Origin: an uncultured Candidatus Saccharibacteria bacterium
Lineage (GTDB): Bacteria > Patescibacteriota > Minisyncoccia > Minisyncoccales > JANBVM01
Length of the DNA: 59,501 nt
NCBI GenBank assembly: GCA_964493485.1
Contig: CAZBMQ010000006.1
Span: forward strand, 12,081 to 71,581
Direction of reading: 5' to 3'
The translations under genes and the position numbers were made by a program. The notes beneath the pieces were generated by a model, which saw only the letters and a program-made list of their open reading frames with translations, did not search any database and was not told the origin of the DNA. Of the stretch, positions 2,518 to 52,804 are shown one piece after another (within the stretch, counting starts at the first letter, position 1; each line of letters opens with the position of its first letter).

Positions 2518-3180
2518 ATGTTTTTTATTCCTCTTACCATTTTACTTTTTATTCTTTTTCTTTTATCTTTGCCTTTTTTATTCCTCTTGACGTATTTCCA
2601 GGTTGTTATTATTGGTTTTGAAAAATTAGGAATTTCTCCGGATACTACATTGTTTATTCTTTTTTTAATTTTAATTGGTTCTTTGATTAATATTCCTTTG
2701 ACCAAAAAGAAATTGGTTTTAGTAAGAAAACCAAGCTTTTTTGGTTTTTTTAATGTGCCGAGAATTGAAACTCATTATGTGGCTATTAATGTTGGTGGGG
2801 CAGTGATTCCAATTTTAATCTCTTTTTATTTTCTCTTATTGGCAAAGATTAAAGGCTTTGAGTTGATGCCCATTTTTAAGTCGATTATTTTAATGAGTAT
2901 TGTTTCTAAACTCTTTGCTAAAGTAATACCTGGCCGTGGTATTGTTTTGCCCGCTTTTATTCCTCCTCTTTTTTCTGCGCTTTTTTCAATGATTTTATCT
3001 CCTGATTTTGCAGCTCCCTGTGCATTTATCTCAGGGGTACTCGGAACCTTAATTGGGGCAGACCTTTTAAATCTTAAGAAGATTCAGCATTATAGCGGTT
3101 ATCTTTCTATTGGCGGAGCAGGGGTGTTTGATGGGATATTCTTGGTGGGAATTGTTTCTGCCATGATTTCAGGTTTTTAG
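2518..3180 (+). CDS. DUF1614-like polytopic membrane protein, putative intramembrane protease
   Basis: Multiple TM segments; INVGGAVIP, GTLIGADLLNL and SIGGAGVFDGIFL motifs recalled from DUF1614. Confidence 0.75.
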   Translation: MFFIPLTILLFILFLLSLPFLFLLTYFQVVIIGFEKLGISPDTTLFILFLILIGSLINIPLTKKKLVLVRKPSFFGFFNVPRIETHYVAINVGGAVIPILISFYFLLLAKIKGFELMPIFKSIILMSIVSKLFAKVIPGRGIVLPAFIPPLFSALFSMILSPDFAAPCAFISGVLGTLIGADLLNLKKIQHYSGYLSIGGAGVFDGIFLVGIVSAMISGF

Positions 3181-3246
3181 GTTCACTTGACTAAAGATTT
3201 CTAAAATGGTTAAATAAAAAAATAACAAAATTAACTAATTTAAGTT

Positions 3247-4224
3247 ATGACAAAATTCGATTACCATAAGATTTGTTTAGATTTGCTTTCTGGTCTTGAT
3301 CAAAGGCAGAAAGAAATAATTTCTCGAAGATTTGGTTTAGGAAGAGATAAAAGAGAAACATTAGAATCAATTGGGAAAGATTTTGGAATTTGCAGAGAAA
3401 GGGTGCGCCAAATAGAAGCTGCAAGTTTAAACAAGATAAAGCCAAAGACGCAAGACCATAAAAAGGTCTTTAATTATTTCTTAAATCATCTAAAAAAGTT
3501 TGGGGGAGTGAGGAAGGAAGAAGTCTTATTAAAAGAACTTGGAGAGGATAACGCAAGAAACGAGGTGTATTTTTTATTAAATTTGAGAGAGCCTTTTAAA
3601 AGAATTAATGAAAACAATGATTTTTACTCTGTTTGGATAATAGGTGAGGATTCATATAATTTAGCAAAGGAAGTGGTTAATTCTCTTGCTTTGCAATTCG
3701 AAAATATTAAAAAACCGCTTCCTTTAGAGGAGCTTAATTCTCCAGCTTCTTTAGAGAAAAGAGCTTTGGAATCTTATCTTGAAGCCTCAAAAAAGATTGA
3801 TAAAAACCAAGACAATCTCTATGGACTTTCTCATTGGCCTGAGATTAATCCCAAAGGGATAAAAGATAAAGCTTATTTGGTTTTTAAGAAGATCGGCAAA
3901 CCTCTTCATTTTCATGAGGTGGCAAAATTGATTGAAAATAGTCATGTACAGACTGTTCATAATGAACTTATAAAAGATAACAGGTTTGTTTTAGTTGGGA
4001 GAGGAATATATGCCTTGGCTGAGTGGGGTTATTATCCAGGACAGGTGAGAGACGTAATACTTAAGATACTGCAAGAATCAGAAGAACCTTTAACAAAGGA
4101 AGAGATTTTAGAAAAGGTATTAAAACAAAGATTGGTGAAAAAGAACACTGTATTATTAAATTTAAGCAATAAACAATACTTTTTAAGAGATTCTCAAGGT
4201 AGATATAGAATAAAAGAAGCTTAA
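3247..4224 (+). CDS. Sigma70 region-4 HTH fused to winged-helix (HARE-HTH-like) domains
   Basis: N-term RRFGL..RETLESIGKDFGICRERVRQIE (sigma r4); C-term KDKAYLVFKKIGKPLHFHEVA..TVHNELIKDNRFVLVGRGIYAL; no sigma regions 2-3. Confidence 0.8.
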   Translation: MTKFDYHKICLDLLSGLDQRQKEIISRRFGLGRDKRETLESIGKDFGICRERVRQIEAASLNKIKPKTQDHKKVFNYFLNHLKKFGGVRKEEVLLKELGEDNARNEVYFLLNLREPFKRINENNDFYSVWIIGEDSYNLAKEVVNSLALQFENIKKPLPLEELNSPASLEKRALESYLEASKKIDKNQDNLYGLSHWPEINPKGIKDKAYLVFKKIGKPLHFHEVAKLIENSHVQTVHNELIKDNRFVLVGRGIYALAEWGYYPGQVRDVILKILQESEEPLTKEEILEKVLKQRLVKKNTVLLNLSNKQYFLRDSQGRYRIKEA

Positions 4225-10063: not shown

Positions 10064-10064
10064 T

Positions 10065-10466
10065 GTCCTAGCAGGCCCGTAAGCCGAATTCTGTTTTAGG
10101 TGATCATTTATCTTGGCTTTAAGTTGCCTTAAAGCTCATGCGAACTACTTTTTCCTTCAACAAGCCTTGGCTAGTAGCACCAGTACAGGTACACATTGAG
10201 ATTACCTCAGCTTGTCAAAGGTTTGTTCTTGCACCCGATAAGGATTTAGCCGTTTCACCCCCGAAGTTACCTTCGGGACTTATCCAGGGAAAACCTGGAT
10301 ACTTTGAACCTTTCGGTTCAAAGCGTCTCTGCTCGCACCTCTAGCCTTTAAGCCGAGGGGTGTTACCCCCTATCTTTTTAACCCTTGTAAGAATCCAAGG
10401 AGTGGGTGTTCGGACTTTCCTCCCCCTCGAACCCTTCGAGAAGGCGATCACTCGGCCTACTAGGAC
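10065..10466 (-). ncRNA. rnpB: RNase P RNA (about 402 nt)
   Basis: Minus strand has GAGGAAAGTCCG (CR-I) and ACAGAATTCGGCTTAC (CR-V); P1 is GTCCTAGTAGGC/GCCTGCTAGGAC; three hairpins in the P12-P14 region. Confidence 0.95.
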
Positions 10467-14217: not shown

Positions 14218-14628
14218 ATGGTAGCAAAAGTTAAAAAATATAAAAAGATTAGACTGAAAAGCGATGTAATTTTCCAAGCTATATTCTTGGGTGTCACCCT
14301 ATTTTTAATTATAATTTTAATAGTTTCTAATTTCAAAATCAGCAAGAAGAGAGCTGCGTTGATGAAGAGGATAGAGTCTTTAAAAGAAGAGATTCAAGAG
14401 TTAGAGCAAGAAAAACAAAAATTAGAGGCAGGAATTTCTCAGACAGGGAAAGAAAGTCATTGGGAGGAAAAGATGAGGGAGCAAGGTTACATCAAAGAAG
14501 GAGAAAATCCTGTGGTGGTGATACCACCTGCAGAAACTCAGAAAGAGGAGATCCCGAAAGAACAAAACTTTTCTCAAAAGCTATTAGATAAAATCAAAGA
14601 TTTATTTGCGAGAGTAATTCAGTGGTAG
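14218..14628 (+). CDS. Septum formation initiator (FtsB/DivIC-like)
   Basis: Short basic N-term, one TM, coiled coil, EEKMREQGYIKEGE motif; last 21 nt lie inside tRNA-Gly. Confidence 0.7.
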   Translation: MVAKVKKYKKIRLKSDVIFQAIFLGVTLFLIIILIVSNFKISKKRAALMKRIESLKEEIQELEQEKQKLEAGISQTGKESHWEEKMREQGYIKEGENPVVVIPPAETQKEEIPKEQNFSQKLLDKIKDLFARVIQW

Positions 14629-44582: not shown

Positions 44583-44976
44583 ATAAAGGTATTAGAAAGC
44601 ACTCTTAAAGTAAATATGGTTTTTTAGAGTTGTCCCGACTATTCTTTTTATTCGAGGATTTGATCCTGGTCCAGGATGAACGCTGGCGGCGTGGATAAGG
44701 CATGCAAGTCGAACGGACCTTATGCTTTGCATAAGGTTAGTGGCGAACGGGTTAGTAACACGTGGGTAACATACCGCCGAGACAGGGACAACCCAGAGAA
44801 ATCTGGGCTAATCCCTGATGGCCTGGTAATTGATTATTCTTTTACCAGTAAAGGGTTTCGCAAGAAACCGCTCGGCGAATGGCCTGCGGCCTATCAGCTT
44901 GTTGGTAGGGTAATGGCCTACCAAGGCTATGACGGGTAGGCGGAGTGAGAGCTTGTCCGCCAACAATGGCACTGAG

Positions 44977-45557: not shown

Positions 45558-46029
45558 AGACGGGGGCTCACACAAGCGGTGGATCATGTGGCTTAATTCG
45601 ATAACAAACGAGGAACCTTACCAGGGCTTGACAGGCTAGTGAAATCCGCCGAAAGGCGGACTACCCACAAGGACACTAGCCCAGGTGCTGCATGGTTGTC
45701 GTCAGCAGGTGTCTTGAGATGCTCCCTTAAATGGGGAAACCTGCGTAACCCTTGCCCTATGTTTCACGTGTCATAGGGGACTGCCGTAGATAATACGGAG
45801 GAAGGTGAGGATGACGTCAAATCAGCATGGCCCTTTGATGTCCTGGGCTGCACACATGATACAATGGTCAGGACAATGGGTTGCTAAGGAGAAATCCGGA
45901 GCTAATCCCATCAAACCTGATCTCAGTTCGGATTGAGGTCTGCAACCCGACCTCATGAAGCCGGAATCGCTAGTAATCGCCAATCAGCCATGTGGCGATG
46001 AATATGTCCCTGAGCCTTGTACTCACCGC

Positions 46030-46892
46030 CCTGAAATAAAGTGCCTGGTAGGTAAATCAGCTAATAGGTGACTCGTTTATTAAAAATTTGTTTAAACGAG
46101 AAATCCTATTTTATAGCCAAAAATAGCATCCTATTTTCTGTAAAGAGATAGGGGAGAGCTTGAGGCGAAAGGCAGCCCTCCAACCTTAATGGGTTGAAGA
46201 GATAAGACGACTTCTGTTGGGCGGTCAGGAGGAAGTCTCTTTATCTTTAAGCTCTATTTGAGGGATGCCTGAAAGAGTTGATTTACTGACCCAGGGAGAT
46301 CCTGATAAGGAAAGAAGCTGGTACCTGTCAGGAAGTCAGCGAGGTAATAGTACCTTATTTATCTTGACGCTATGCATGTCCAAAGATAAGATAAGGGAAG
46401 GACCTCACCTATCTATGCTTACTGAAGATTATGTTATTGGATTAACAGATGGAGAAGGAAGCTTTACAGTGTTTCAGAGAAAAATTGGAAAGTACCGTAA
46501 GATAGAGTGTCATTTTTATGTGAAGATGAGAAAAGAAGAAAAAGAATTATTAGAGAGGTTGAAAAAATTTTTTGGATGTGGTCGAGTCTCTTTTCAGAAA
46601 GATAAACGAAGAAATCATAGTGATTGTTATCGCTATGAAGTGGGGAACATAAAAGAATTGAGACAAAAAATAATTCCAGTTTTTAAAGGGAGATTGTTAA
46701 GCAAGAAGAGAAAGAAGGATTTTGAGATATTTTGTAAGATTTTGAAGCTTGTGGAAAGTAAGGCACATTTAAGCGAGGAAGGATGGGAAAGAATTAAAAA
46801 GTTGAAAGGAAAGATGCATAGATAGGGCTCCGCCCGGTACGGGAAATCCGTACGCCGGGAAGGAACGAGAAAGCTAGTTTCAAGCACTCAAT
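46030..46892 (+). mobile_element. Group II (IIC-like) intron in 16S at E. coli about 1402/1403, 863 nt; boundary could shift by 2 nt
   Basis: D1 base CCTGG/CCAGG, EBS1 loop GGGCGGT complementary to the junction ACCGCCC, J2/3 AGC, D3 GAGGT/ACCTC, 11-bp D4, CGC-triad D5, end CTCAAT. Confidence 0.85.
46415..46825 (+). CDS. Single-motif LAGLIDADG homing endonuclease (136 aa) in intron domain IV
   Basis: YVIGLTDGEGSF motif, beta-saddle F.V.MR..E..LL..L..FFGCG.V, Y.V..IKEL...IIP.F; the upstream 50 codons of the track ORF are ribozyme sequence. Confidence 0.92.
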   Translation: MLTEDYVIGLTDGEGSFTVFQRKIGKYRKIECHFYVKMRKEEKELLERLKKFFGCGRVSFQKDKRRNHSDCYRYEVGNIKELRQKIIPVFKGRLLSKKRKKDFEIFCKILKLVESKAHLSEEGWERIKKLKGKMHR

Positions 46893-47167
46893 CCGTCACG
46901 CCAAGCGAGCTGGGAATAGCTGAAGTCCCGCCGATTAAGGTGGGCCTAAGCTAGGTTCAGTGAGAGGGGCGAAGTCGTAACAAGGCACGGGTAGCGGAAG
47001 CTGTCCGTGGATCACCACATTTTATTTTTTGATTGGTCGACTAGGATTGAAATCTGGAATTCGGATTTTAATTCTAGGGGTGTTGATCGAGGAGCCTTTA
47101 AGTCTCGATCGTTGAAATAAGTCGGGACAACTCTAAGAAACCATAAAAAGACTTATATAAAATAATT

Positions 47168-47198
47168 AAAAGCCAGTTTGAATGTACAGGCTTTTTTT
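47168..47198 (+). terminator. Possible terminator after the 16S precursor
   Basis: AAAAGCC...GGCTTTT with a 7-T run; 14-nt loop. Confidence 0.5.
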
Positions 47199-47204
47199 AT
47201 TGAC

Positions 47205-47233
47205 TTGCAAAAATAAAAAAATTGACATAAAAT
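47205..47233 (+). promoter_or_regulatory. Promoter of the YbaK-MTase-tRNA unit
   Basis: TTGCAA, 17 nt, TAAAAT, ending 8 nt before ATG 47242. Confidence 0.55.
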
Positions 47234-47241
47234 TTATTTAT

Positions 47242-47748
47242 ATGCCGGTTCCAAAGAAAGTGATTAATTTTTTAGAAAAGAATAGGGCAAGATATGAAAT
47301 AGTTGAACACCGAACAGTTTACACTGCTTTTGATAAAGTGAAGACATTAAAAGTAAAACCAAATATTGTTGGAAAAACATTGGTTTTAAAAGGAGATAAA
47401 GATTTAATATTTGTGTTGATTCCAGCAAACAAGAATTTAGATAAGAATAAATTTAAAAAAATAGTTAATATTTGGAGAAAAAAACAGGGAAAGAAGAGTG
47501 TGAAAAAGATAGAATTTGTATCAGAAAGAGTAATTAAGAATAAAATAAAAGGAGTGAAATTAGGTGCTATTCCTCCTTTTGGAAGCCTTTTTGGGTATCC
47601 TACTTTTGTAAATAAATCATTGTTGAGTCAGAGAAAGATTATTCTGAATTCAGGCATTCCTGATTTTTCAGTTAGAATTACAACAGCTTCTTTTAAAAAA
47701 ATAATCCCAGATATGATATCTGCAAATTTTGTGAAGGCGAAAAAGTAA
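47242..47748 (+). CDS. YbaK/EbsC-family aminoacyl-tRNA deacylase (168 aa)
   Basis: HRTVYTA, VGKTLV (conserved Lys), GAIPPFG; start moved to ATG 47242. Confidence 0.85.
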   Translation: MPVPKKVINFLEKNRARYEIVEHRTVYTAFDKVKTLKVKPNIVGKTLVLKGDKDLIFVLIPANKNLDKNKFKKIVNIWRKKQGKKSVKKIEFVSERVIKNKIKGVKLGAIPPFGSLFGYPTFVNKSLLSQRKIILNSGIPDFSVRITTASFKKIIPDMISANFVKAKK

Positions 47749-47764
47749 TTTAAATGATTTTAAG

Positions 47765-48325
47765 ATGTGGTATCAAACTTTCTCAATATTTTATGAAAAA
47801 GCTGCAGAAAGAATGTGCCAAGAATGTAAAGAGTTTATTAAAAAGGGGAGCAGAATACTTGATTTAGGTTGTGGTTCTGGAATAGTAGGTAATACATTTC
47901 AGAATTTTTTTAAGGCAGAAGTTATGGGAGTGGATATTACAGATAGAAGAGTACTTCCTATTCCATTTAAAACTATTGATGGAAAATCTCTTCCTTTTCA
48001 GGATAATAATTTTGATGCAGTATTAATTTCTTATGTGTTACACCACAGCCAGGATCCAATGCTTCTTTTAAAAGAAGCTAAAAGAGTGACGAGGGATAAG
48101 ATTTTAGTGTACGAAGATTTGCCGGATGGGATTTTCTCAAGATTATTTTGTGCTCTTCATGGATTTTTATTTGATAAATTATTTCAGAATAAAAATAGAA
48201 CAAGCTTTAAAACAGAAGAAGAATGGAAAAAGGTATTTGCAGATTTAGACTTAAAAATGGTTTTTCAAAAAAAGGTTTCTTTTTTAAACCCAGTTAGAAA
48301 AAAATTGTTTGTATTACAGAAATAG
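47765..48325 (+). CDS. Class I SAM-dependent methyltransferase
   Basis: ILDLGCGSG, GVDI, LPFQDNNFDAV, VLHH; the last base of TAG is G1 of tRNA-Ile. Confidence 0.88.
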   Translation: MWYQTFSIFYEKAAERMCQECKEFIKKGSRILDLGCGSGIVGNTFQNFFKAEVMGVDITDRRVLPIPFKTIDGKSLPFQDNNFDAVLISYVLHHSQDPMLLLKEAKRVTRDKILVYEDLPDGIFSRLFCALHGFLFDKLFQNKNRTSFKTEEEWKKVFADLDLKMVFQKKVSFLNPVRKKLFVLQK

Positions 48326-48399
48326 GGCATGTAGTTCAATGGTAGAACACTTCTCTGATAAAGAAGAGGTCGTAGGTTCGATTCCTACCATGCCCACCA
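48325..48399 (+). tRNA. tRNA-Ile (GAT), CCA encoded
   Basis: GGGCATG/CATGCCC acceptor; CTTCT-CTGATAA-AGAAG anticodon arm; A73 then CCA. Confidence 0.95.
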
Positions 48400-48431
48400 A
48401 CATTGCTTTGCAATATAGAATTTAACACACT

Positions 48432-48505
48432 GGGCCCGTAGCTCAGTTGGCTAGAGCATCGCATTTGCAATGCGGAGGTCAGGAGTTCGAGTCTCCTCGG
48501 GTCCA
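48432..48505 (+). tRNA. tRNA-Ala (TGC)
   Basis: G3-U70 identity pair; TCGCA-TTTGCAA-TGCGG anticodon arm. Confidence 0.95.
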
Positions 48506-48657
48506 CACTTATTTTCTTTCTTTAAGTTTTCCACAAAAAGTTTTTTTGGCTCTCTTAACTATGTTATAATATAAAAATATAGTTTGTTATGGCGCATTTG
48601 ATATGCGACATAACTGTTAATTCTTAAAAGGTCGATAAATAACCTTTTACAAAAAAT

Positions 48658-49335
48658 ATGGTGAAAGACTGGTCAGTAATTACTACTGAGGCTTTACAAG
48701 AAACTTGGAGAGCATTTTTATTCTTTTTACCTAAACTGATTGGAGCAATAATAGTATTTGTTATTGGTTGGCTTATTTCTTCTGCTTTAGGCAGATTAGT
48801 GGCTGAGGCTCTGAAGCTTTTAAAGTTTAATCAGGTATTTGAAAGAAGCAATTGGAAAGAAGCTCTTGAAAAAGCAGATTTGAAGGTAAATCCTTCTGAC
48901 TTTGTTGGAGGAATTTGTAAATGGATTCTGGTAATAGTATTCTTGCTTGCTTCAGTAGACATTTTAGGGTTTGAAGAGTTTGCTGACATTTTAAGCAGAG
49001 TTATAAGTTGGCTTCCAAACCTGATAGTTGCTATAGCTATTTTCATAGTGGCTATAATTCTTACTGATATTTTAGAAAAAATCATTAAGGCTAGTGTGGA
49101 AAAGATGGGGATAGAACATGCAGGATTTCTTGGTACTTTGGTAAGATGGTCAGTTTACTTTTTTGCTCTAGTAGCTATACTTATTCAGTTAGAAGTAGCG
49201 CCGAGTATAATTAATACGTTGTTTACAGGAATAGTTGGAATGTTTAGCTTAGCTTTTGGTTTAGCTTTTGGGCTTGGGGGAAAGGATGCTGCAGCTAAGG
49301 TAATTGAAGATTTCAAGAGAAAAATTTCTTCATAA
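48658..49335 (+). CDS. MscS-associated TM-helix repeat membrane protein
   Basis: Two repeats of (F/W)LP(K/N)LI.A..(V/I)F; GLAFGLGGKD C-terminus; no cytoplasmic cage domain. Confidence 0.75.
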   Translation: MVKDWSVITTEALQETWRAFLFFLPKLIGAIIVFVIGWLISSALGRLVAEALKLLKFNQVFERSNWKEALEKADLKVNPSDFVGGICKWILVIVFLLASVDILGFEEFADILSRVISWLPNLIVAIAIFIVAIILTDILEKIIKASVEKMGIEHAGFLGTLVRWSVYFFALVAILIQLEVAPSIINTLFTGIVGMFSLAFGLAFGLGGKDAAAKVIEDFKRKISS

Positions 49336-49419
49336 ATTTTTTTCATCTGAAATTAAAACAGTAACAGAGTAACAGCTTGTATAAAATTACAAGAATGAGT
49401 TTTATTAGTTGAAGGAGAT

Positions 49420-49471
49420 AAACCCACATCACACATCATAGATATCAGTTTGAAGCGTGGTGTGGGTTTTT
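49420..49471 (+). terminator. Long hairpin with T-run just upstream of the 23S promoter
   Basis: 13-bp AAACCCACATCAC / GTGGTGTGGGTTT stem followed by TT; large loop. Confidence 0.5.
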
Positions 49472-49474
49472 AGC

Positions 49475-49502
49475 TTGACAAATTATTTTGATTTGCTAAA
49501 AT
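49475..49502 (+). promoter_or_regulatory. Promoter upstream of 23S-5S
   Basis: TTGACA, 16 nt, TGn-TAAAAT. Confidence 0.7.
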
Positions 49503-49512
49503 AAGGATATAC

Positions 49513-49569
49513 ATGAAAATGATGAGTATGATGATAAATTATTTAATAAAGAAAACAAGAAGCGGTTAG
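49513..49569 (+). CDS. Putative Met-rich leader peptide MKMMSMMINYLIKKTRSG
   Basis: 5 ATG among the first 7 codons; stop codon overlaps the antiterminator 5' arm; not in the ORF track (18 aa). Confidence 0.55.
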   Translation: MKMMSMMINYLIKKTRSG

Positions 49570-49623
49570 TGTTTGGAATTTTTATTAATTACTAGAGAGA
49601 CCGCTTCTTGGGAGCGGTTTTTT
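49556..49623 (+). promoter_or_regulatory. Mutually exclusive antiterminator/terminator hairpins
   Basis: CAAGAAGCGGT (49556-66) pairs perfectly with ACCGCTTCTTG (49600-10); alternatively AGACCGCTTC/GGAGCGGTTT plus T-run forms a terminator. Confidence 0.7.
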
Positions 49624-49707
49624 GATTAAAGAATGGGAAAGAACTCTACAACTAAATAAAGACAGTAAAAGGCATTATTCGCTAAATTTGTTTTATAGGA
49701 TTTTGGA

Positions 49708-52654
<2,947 letters not shown>

Positions 52655-52690
52655 CCAGAATTCTGTAAAACAAAATAATAAAAGGGCGCT

Positions 52691-52804
52691 TTAGTGGCAA
52701 CTATACTGGCATTGTCCCACCTGTTCCCATCTCGAACACAGAAGTGAAATATGCCAAGGCCGATGATAGTGGGTTTCCCGCGAAAGTAGGTAGTTGCCGC
52801 TAAA
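52691..52804 (+). rRNA. rrf: 5S rRNA
   Basis: GTCCCACCTG..CCCAT..CGAAC.CAGAAGTGAAA, GCCGATG.TAGT, AAGTAGG; helix I extended about 10 bp by flanks, then a T-run. Confidence 0.95.

Follow-up and report, generated by a model that had tools for sequence, protein, structure and literature searches.

The stretch analysed here (the window, 59,501 nucleotides (nt) of contig CAZBMQ010000006.1 from an uncultured Candidatus Saccharibacteria bacterium) contains a single ribosomal RNA (rRNA) operon, with the 16S gene starting at 44648, the 23S gene at 49708-52655 and the 5S gene at 52693-52802, and the subject of this report is a foreign insert of 863 nt that splits the 16S gene at CACCGC/CCGUCAC (a slash within exon sequence marks the point of insertion). 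In the Rfam scan of the window the 16S gene was matched by RF00177 with 1343.9 bits, is broken off after ...GTACTCACCGC (last nt 46029) and is taken up again at CCGTCACGCC (46893), the insert occupying 46030-46892 of the plus strand. Window coordinates are used throughout and the features are collected in Table 1. The insert is a group II intron ribozyme, not a group I intron, and its open reading frame (ORF) encodes a LAGLIDADG homing endonuclease and no reverse transcriptase (RT). An earlier reading made from the letters alone (the sequence-only reading) had described a conserved motif of the 16S decoding region as split by 863 nt, which is borne out by the sequence of the 16S exons, and all of the motifs that it had placed were found at the same coordinates, namely CCTGG at 46044-48 with CCAGG at 46291-95, GGGCGGT at 46219-25, AGC at 46338-40, domain 3 at 46341-46406 (GAGGU/ACCUC), CGC at 46831-33 and the end ...CTCAAT.

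The ORF was matched to the Pfam family PF00961 LAGLIDADG_1 (E 3e-15) and, in the PDB, to the two halves of enzymes of the I-OnuI/I-SmaMI/I-PanMI family (E ~1e-29), in agreement with the earlier proposal of a LAGLIDADG nuclease in place of an RT. The gene was delimited as 46415-46825 because the 188 database homologues, which are 136-146 amino acids (aa) long and mostly from Patescibacteria, align from the ATG at 46415. A longer frame of 186 aa (46265-46825) was rejected as the gene, as the homologues start at the ATG equivalent to 46415 and the longer frame runs through domains 1 to 3 of the ribozyme. Residues D12, G13, E14 and G15 are invariant in 32 homologues, and the acidic residue of the motif is kept. 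A single LAGLIDADG motif implies a homodimer, as in I-CreI-type enzymes, and the endonuclease presumably acts as one. In the basal helix of domain 4 (11 base pairs, -18.9 kcal/mol), for which relatives supply compensatory changes, the start codon is base-paired to the end of the gene, its last codons and stop codon, and the folded ribozyme therefore probably limits translation; the same helix probably explains the almost invariant Met-His at the C terminus of the protein.

Relatives were collected by a genome scan with one genome per species, in which 80 loci were kept from 348 relatives of the protein. Homologous introns were found in all 80, nearly all of them in metagenome-assembled genomes of Patescibacteria, the Candidate Phyla Radiation (CPR), and in nearly all 80 the ORF lies ~70 nt upstream of CCGUCA or CGCCCGUCA, that is, in the same region of the 16S gene. 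Four closer relatives (~75% nucleotide identity, L081-L086) were added by way of the protein, and two independent assemblies (L087 and L088, behind which stand ERZ27248458 and SRR7051285) carry introns 100% identical to that of the window. Six intron loci are labelled Woesearchaeota, Pacearchaeota, Gammaproteobacteria, Brevinema or Spirochaetia (L012, L046, L031, L033, L036 and L072); the flanking 16S exon of all of these except L012 was recorded as the CPR-type GUACUCAC, and the labels are probably errors of binning or labelling. One locus, L027, also contains a group I intron (RF00028, 74.6 bits, 3104-3546) ~70 nt downstream of the group II intron in the same 16S gene.

The group II-like LAGLIDADG introns at this site of CPR 16S genes were first seen by Brown et al. 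(2015), and CPR rRNA insertions have been reported to be absent from transcripts. In the survey of Tsurumaki et al. (2024, PMC11270868) more than half of the CPR rRNA insertions were group I-like and group II-like insertions were found only at about position 1400 of the 16S gene, in 53 cases, 39 of which had LAGLIDADG_1 and none an RT. The window intron is a further member of this published family, which is common at this site, and the rarity that the sequence-only reading had ascribed to group II introns with LAGLIDADG genes was overstated, given the 53 published cases and the 80 of 80 loci found here.

Ribozyme fold and its conservation

Domains 1 to 3 (D1 to D3) were aligned in 30 diverse relatives and analysed using RNAalifold and pair counts, with shuffled columns and a slid 3' partner strand as controls. 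The resulting model contains 59 pairs in nine helices, in which 94% of the alignment cells are paired as opposed to 67.7% after shuffling and 33-48% after sliding, and compensatory change was observed in 51 of the 59 pairs, in line with the group II plan of six domains around a central wheel. The base helix of D1 is 99% paired over the 30 relatives, with compensatory change in four of its five pairs, and the folding energy of the whole intron has a z value of -5.4 relative to shuffles. An extra hairpin, CUCGUUU...AAACGAG at 46072-46097 in the loop of the D1 hairpin 46064-46109, is shared by L084 and L006 and is missing from most relatives.

The Rfam family RF01998 (group-II-D1D4-1, gathering score 35 bits), which spans D2, the junction J2/3 and D3, was matched in the window at 46297-46403 with 21 bits and at the same place in nine of 12 relatives with 28-40 bits, the gathering score being passed by L002, L009, L015 and L028. 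RF00029, which models D5 and D6 and has a gathering score of 40 bits, gave its best match in L021 (32.6 bits) and weaker ones in L003 and L002; applied to the window intron it returned no match even at E 10. Weak, sub-threshold matches of RF02003 fell on D1 of L083 and L081. The group II models match the relatives in the correct domain order.

For D5 and D6 an alignment of 67 sequences was used, of which 64 rows entered the triad counts. Here 91.7% of the cells of 22 pairs are paired, compared with 70.1% after shuffling and 34-45% after sliding, and the family D5 by itself is 95% paired with compensatory change in eight of its ten core pairs. Its consensus is CUCGC-NNNN-U-GCGG-GAAAU-CCGC-AC-G-N'N'N'N'-GUGGG, with the catalytic triad CGC in 45 and CGU in 15 of the 64 rows and the central G.U in 59, and with an AC bulge six pairs from the triad as in the Rfam model. 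A group II D5 is expected to be a hairpin of ~34 nt with an AGC or CGC triad, a central G.U, a 2-nt bulge and a GNRA-type loop, and the family fits this description. In the RF00029 alignment of L021 the model's AGC falls on CGC, and the correspondence extends to the AC bulge and to the bulged branch A.

The window copy departs from this consensus in a way that the sequence-only reading had overlooked: the 5' strand of D5 is CUCCGC, with one extra C, the 3' strand is GAAGG, and the triad base G46832 faces A46860/A46861 with no U to wobble with. The variant is kept in all four of the sequenced relatives of the window subclade (L081-L086), in which the ORF is intact and base pairs have changed in a compensatory manner in D6, in the upper helix of D5 and in the stem of the D1 hairpin that binds the 5' exon, D5 being otherwise conserved in this subclade. 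It is not an error, because the two independent assemblies are identical and five diverged relatives share it; a misassembly as its source was rejected on these grounds. In five other introns (L015, at about 1040-1175, L025, L027 and L028, of type A as defined below, and L077, of type B) the 3' strand of D5 is interrupted by ~45 nt that fold as two hairpins. The insertion point (5' CUCGC ... G[insertion]UGGGAAC) separates the pairing partner of the triad C, a G, from the wobble partner of the triad G, a U, and the minimum-energy fold gives a four-way junction. At the corresponding spot (46859-46863) the window subclade has GAAGG in place of GUGGG.

D6 was read from the sequence. Its unpaired A46886 lies 7 nt from the intron's 3' end (position -7) in a 3x1 internal loop, and L081 has compensatory changes in both helices (GGG/CCC and ACU/AGU). 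Among the relatives, the other introns inserted at the same point as the window intron (type A, below) have a canonical bulged A at -8, and those of the second insertion type (type B) have no bulged A on the 3' strand.

Exon recognition and insertion registers

The exact junction is ambiguous from the window alone, with three Cs before the insert and two after it, and was assigned with the help of L021 (CACCGC/AAAUC...CCAAU/CCGUCA). It is placed between C1402 and C1403 because L021 has only CACCGC ahead of its intron and all type A relatives end in AAU; the 16S gene accordingly restarts with CCGUCACGCCAAG at 46893. The E. coli numbering was derived from the 1392-1406 primer region. The terminal AAU agrees with the 3' AY of group II introns.

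Exon-binding site 1 (EBS1) is formed by the last five bases of a D1 hairpin loop, directly next to the stem's 3' arm. Of 71 introns examined, nearly all have an EBS1 that complements all five bases of the intron's own intron-binding site 1 (IBS1). The introns fall into three insertion registers. Type A, at C1402/C1403, comprises the window intron and 16 others and pairs GCGGU with ACCGC; type B, at C1399/C1400, comprises ~52 loci (GUACUCAC/AAUAAAAGCGC...UAAU/CGCCCGUCA) and pairs GUGAG with CUCAC; and L003 alone represents a third register at A1398/C1399, one base upstream of type B, with one extra base after GUGAG in its loop. In L002 the exon is CACAC and EBS1 is GUGUG, a compensatory change. 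Loop bases on the 5' side of EBS1 complement the beginning of the 3' exon, and in four loci (L054, L076, L078 and L026) where the 3' exon starts with U, not with the universally conserved C1400, the base just 5' of EBS1 is A and not G, a covariation that may represent only one or two evolutionary events. The arrangement of EBS1/IBS1 plus delta put forward in the sequence-only reading is thus supported, because the base next to EBS1 changes with the first base of the 3' exon, and both elements covary with the exons across the relatives. The window endonuclease is ~50% identical to type A and type B proteins alike, and the protein phylogeny is uninformative on the register.

The counterpart of the group II 5' consensus GUGYG, the GUGCC of the window, which aligns as GYGCN in the 30 relatives, does not begin at the 5' splice site and follows a linker of 11 nt that the sequence-only reading had also overlooked. 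The linker is 9-11 nt long in type A introns and 7 nt (AAUAAAA) in type B. A splice at GUGCC itself (46040/46041) was rejected, as it would leave 11 variable nt in the decoding centre and as EBS1 pairs with ACCGC and not with the linker. Such 5'-terminal linkers are known from fungal rRNA group II introns, where they accompany the loss of EBS2 and of the branch A (2015 review), and rRNA group II introns with GUGYG displaced from the splice site have been described as a variant (Liu et al., 2026, PMC13190283; 2015 review). No EBS2 element stood out in the D1 alignment of the relatives, in which no formal search for one was made.

Table 1. Coordinates of the split 16S gene, the intron and its parts in the window.
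Feature	Position	Strand	Details and support
16S rRNA 5' exon, to E. coli C1402	44648-46029	+	RF00177, 1343.9 bits; end ...CUUGUACUCACCGC
IBS1 ACCGC, final 5 nt of 5' exon	46025-46029	+	5/5 complement of EBS1
Group II intron, 863 nt	46030-46892	+	borders from L021 and the family-wide 3' AAU; identical in L087 and L088
5'-terminal linker CCUGAAAUAAA, 5' splice site to GUGYG-like motif	46030-46040	+	A-rich; length and sequence vary among relatives
GUGCC, counterpart of GUGYG	46041-46045	+	aligned GYGCN in 30 relatives
Domain 1	46044-46295	+	base helix 46044-48/46291-95; second helix 46051-62/46276-87
Domain 1 inner helices	46064-68/46105-09, 46116-18/46164-66, 46127-39/46144-53, 46170-79/46261-70	+	RNAalifold, pair counts
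EBS1 hairpin	46211-46231	+	stem CUUCUG 46211-16/CAGGAG 46226-31; loop UUGGGCGGU 46217-25
EBS1 GCGGU 46221-25; delta G46220 (and G46219)	within 46211-46231	+	
Domain 2	46296-46333	+	helix 46300-06/46327-33; 7 pairs, 6 compensatory, 98.6% paired
J2/3, AGUCAGC	46334-46340	+	almost invariant in 30 relatives; inside RF01998 match
Domain 3	46341-46406	+	base GAGGU 46341-45/ACCUC 46402-06; upper helix 46353-56/46393-96; RF01998; compensatory changes
Domain 4	46407-46827	+	basal helix 46408-18/46816-26 buries start and stop codons
ORF, 136-aa single-motif LAGLIDADG homing endonuclease, motif VIGLTDGEG	46415-46825	+	Pfam, PDB, homologues
Domain 5	46829-46864	+	triad C46831 G46832 C46833; AC bulge 46852-53; GAAAU loop 46843-47
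Domain 6	46867-46889	+	GAG/CUC, internal loop AAA/A, GCU/AGC; read from sequence
Intron 3' end AAU	46890-46892	+	kept in all type A relatives
16S rRNA 3' exon, from C1403	46893-47022	+	CCGUCACGCC...GUCGUAACAAGG...GGAUCACC; 3' end coordinate approximate
delta' partner of G46220, C46893, first nt of 3' exon	46893	+	

Beyond the intron, the 3' end of the 16S gene (47009-47023) reads GGAUCACCACAUUUU, and the usual anti-Shine-Dalgarno CCUCC is not there. The spacer between the 16S and 23S genes is ~2.7 kb long (47023-49707) and contains three ORFs (47182-47748, 47765-48325 and 48658-49335), the first two of which are represented in the identical contig L087 by a tRNA_edit (PF04073) protein and a methyltransferase, together with two transfer RNA (tRNA) genes (48325-48396 and 48432-48505). 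Further tRNA genes of the window lie at 14608, 14729 and 17633, and a class A RNase P RNA was found at 10064-10463 on the minus strand (131.5 bits).

Comparison with known introns

The closest known elements are the CPR insertions at ~1400 named 16IS9 (PMC11270868), which agree with the window intron in host group, 16S region, Rfam group II signal, single-domain LAGLIDADG_1 protein and lack of an RT, and for which homing at the level of DNA was proposed by Tsurumaki et al. (2024, PMC11270868) as it is here. That study, unlike the present one, contains no analysis of the RNA (class, EBS, D5, linker), and it treats 16IS9 as one position where three junction registers are resolved here. The window copy lies under the Rfam gathering score, and a screen relying on Rfam at that score would miss it. 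Relative to Tsurumaki et al. (2024) and Liu et al. (2026), three observations may be new: the three registers tracked by EBS1 and delta, the G/AA triad variant of the window subclade, and the 45-nt two-hairpin insertion in D5 of five introns.

A second family, rns-1396 of Thiotrichaceae (Thiomargarita and others; PMC13190283), shares the 16S gene, an insertion point only a few nt away, a 5' linker in all members and a single-motif LAGLIDADG gene in D4. The rns-1396 intron of giant sulfur bacteria (Salman et al., 2012) was classed as IIC-LAGLIDADG without EBS2 by Liu et al. (2026, PMC13190283), and self-splicing is reported to have been shown for the sulfur-bacteria introns. The family differs in host phylum and in the junction, which is numbered 1396 as opposed to 1402 here and 1399 or 1398 in the relatives. 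Its introns, compared here through their published description, are annotated with IBS3, whereas here the base adjoining EBS1 covaries with the 3' exon. The sequence similarity between the rns-1396 and CPR introns must be low, because a BLASTN survey of 2026 (PMC13190283) recovered only Thiotrichaceae and no CPR introns.

Group II introns of subclass IIB1 with LAGLIDADG genes in fungal mitochondrial rRNA (Toor and Zimmerly, 2002; Mullineux et al., 2010; Li et al., 2011) resemble the window intron in rRNA host and in the presence of LAGLIDADG in place of an RT. According to the 2015 review, 1-33 nt stand between the 5' exon and GUGYG, like the linker here, and EBS2 and the branch A have been lost, the latter also in the type B relatives; they differ from the window intron in an AGC triad and mostly double-motif enzymes, as against CGC, a ribozyme of ~440 nt, a single motif and a bacterial host. 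The protein encoded in the window has its closest counterparts in the I-OnuI/I-SmaMI family of enzymes from fungal mitochondria.

Canonical class IIC introns (O.i.I1 and B.h.I1) are alike in the small ribozyme, the CGC triad, the D2-D3 region of RF01998 type and, in vitro, mostly hydrolytic splicing. AGC is also found in J2/3 in the structure of the Oceanobacillus IIC intron. They differ in encoding an RT, in inserting after the stem-loops of terminators or attC sites, and in having a very short EBS1, an EBS3, usually G at position -3 and a D1 that matches RF02001, which has no match here.

Mechanism, rival readings and meaning

We regard the insert as a mobile group II intron of a family that occupies 16S positions 1398-1402 across the CPR and spreads by LAGLIDADG-driven homing at the level of DNA, a reading to which we assign a probability of roughly 0.85. 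In the precursor rRNA the end of the D1 hairpin loop, GCGGU (46221-25), would pair with the last five exon bases, ACCGC, and G46220 with the first base of the 3' exon, the two pairings together setting both splice sites. The catalytic core (J2/3 AGUCAGC, D3, and D5 with its CGC triad) would remove the intron and rejoin C1402 to C1403, restoring the decoding centre, and the ligated 16S would join ...CUCACCGC to CCGUCACG. The endonuclease translated from the D4 gene, presumably as a homodimer, would cut intron-less 16S rDNA near the insertion site, and repair from an intron-bearing copy would spread the intron by DNA homing without reverse transcription. As the 5' splice site lies 11 nt upstream of GUGCC, the first splicing step is most likely hydrolysis with release of a linear intron and no lariat, which the linker and the analogy with fungal introns and with class IIC introns, known to self-splice in vitro mostly by hydrolysis, would favour; the unpaired A46886 in D6 may also permit branching.

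Several observations weigh against this reading. RF00029 is blind to D5 of the window and RF01998 gives only 21 of the 35 bits required; D5 differs from that of the family just where conservation is highest, with AA opposite the triad G and an extra C in the 5' strand; and GUGYG is not at the splice site. Hydrolysis in preference to branching is argued by analogy, and the splicing of the window copy, like the activity, dimerisation and target of the endonuclease, is deduced from sequence.

A rival reading starts from the departure in D5: the window copy would be catalytically crippled, and either its removal would rely on assistance, from its own LAGLIDADG protein acting as maturase or from a host factor, or it would be cut out by host RNases with no ligation. 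The triad G46832 without a wobble partner, the blank result of RF00029 and the 45-nt insertion that some relatives carry at the same point of D5 would suit such a reading, as would the maturase function of some LAGLIDADG proteins of group I introns (2015 review). The variant is, however, kept across six sequences diverged to ~75% identity, and the compensatory changes that these sequences show in the EBS1 hairpin, in D6 and in the rest of D5 argue for selection on the ribozyme; moreover, the sole group II LAGLIDADG protein tested did not aid splicing (2015 review), and the decoding centre would be severed by a break at C1402/C1403. We consider a crippled copy unlikely. Still further from the evidence is the idea of a group I intron, or of an intervening sequence with no ribozyme structure that simply houses a free-standing gene for a homing endonuclease. 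Group I introns are the usual seat of LAGLIDADG genes, group I-like elements make up over half of the CPR rRNA insertions (PMC11270868), and L027 has a true group I intron ~70 nt from its group II intron. Against this, the group I model RF00028 found nothing in the window insert with E relaxed to 10, the last base of the intron is U and not G, that of the 5' exon is C and not U, and the group II models and the covariation fit throughout, so that the group I alternative was rejected and both forms of this reading are effectively refuted. The sequence-only reading had likewise called a group II ribozyme, a call that stands after the comparison of Rfam group II with group I models, since the former match and the latter do not and D1, D2, D3, D5 and D6 covary.

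A further alternative leaves mechanism and mobility unchanged and concerns ancestry, holding that the backbone is not IIC and derives from IIB1, as in the fungal rRNA LAGLIDADG introns, or from a reduced lineage of mixed IIA, IIB and IIC character. The sequence-only reading had favoured class IIC, for which the CGC triad in D5, the small ribozyme (~440 nt without the ORF) and the RF01998-type region from D2 to D3 still speak; no other clan member scores as well as RF01998 in the window and nine relatives, and among 20 phage introns RF01998 matches only the one IIC intron. The triad, a IIC trait, was rejected as proof, as CGC is also present in IIB-classed phage introns. RF02001, which Rfam assigns to the solved Oceanobacillus IIC structure 4FAW, gave no match in the window (E limit 10) or in 12 relatives (E limit 5), 13 introns in all, and RF02003, which weakly matches D1 of L083 and L081, was seen with a IIA phage intron. 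EBS1 measures 5 nt, where a very short EBS1 and an EBS3 are expected of IIC; position -3 is A, where the vast majority of IIC introns have G; and the intron lies inside a 16S gene and carries a LAGLIDADG ORF, unlike the insertion of IIC introns at terminator or attC stem-loops with a class C RT. A delta base next to EBS1 that pairs with the 3' exon is a IIA-type arrangement, and the base adjoining EBS1 here does covary with the first base of the 3' exon. While a 2015 review puts all LAGLIDADG group II introns in IIB1, the bacterial one included, Liu et al. (2026, PMC13190283) class as IIC the rns-1396 LAGLIDADG family, which likewise has the 5' linker and a single-motif ORF in D4 and lacks EBS2. 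Class IIC is thus plausible and not settled, and a backbone outside IIC, though the less favoured assignment, deserves serious attention.

With the mobile intron as the preferred reading, the presence of one CPR family in three registers, with EBS1 and delta re-matched each time, may amount to a natural set of retargeted group II introns with a homing endonuclease as the driving force, in which D5, as a rule the most constrained part of a group II intron, also tolerates G/AA and a 45-nt insertion; we put this forward tentatively, at slightly short of even odds. The findings are modest extensions of published work and not a new kind of element. In practice, a copy below the Rfam threshold means that an annotation pipeline would report a truncated 16S gene and a hypothetical protein, and amplification with primers in the 1390-1410 region would either fail or yield a product exceeding the expected length by ~860 bp. 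CPR bacteria generally have a single rRNA operon, and since the intron lies between C1402 and C1403 in the decoding centre, every ribosome that the cell makes would depend on its being spliced out precisely. The family could show how a group II ribozyme and a DNA endonuclease shift an insertion point by one to four nucleotides, and how much change a catalytic D5 bears.

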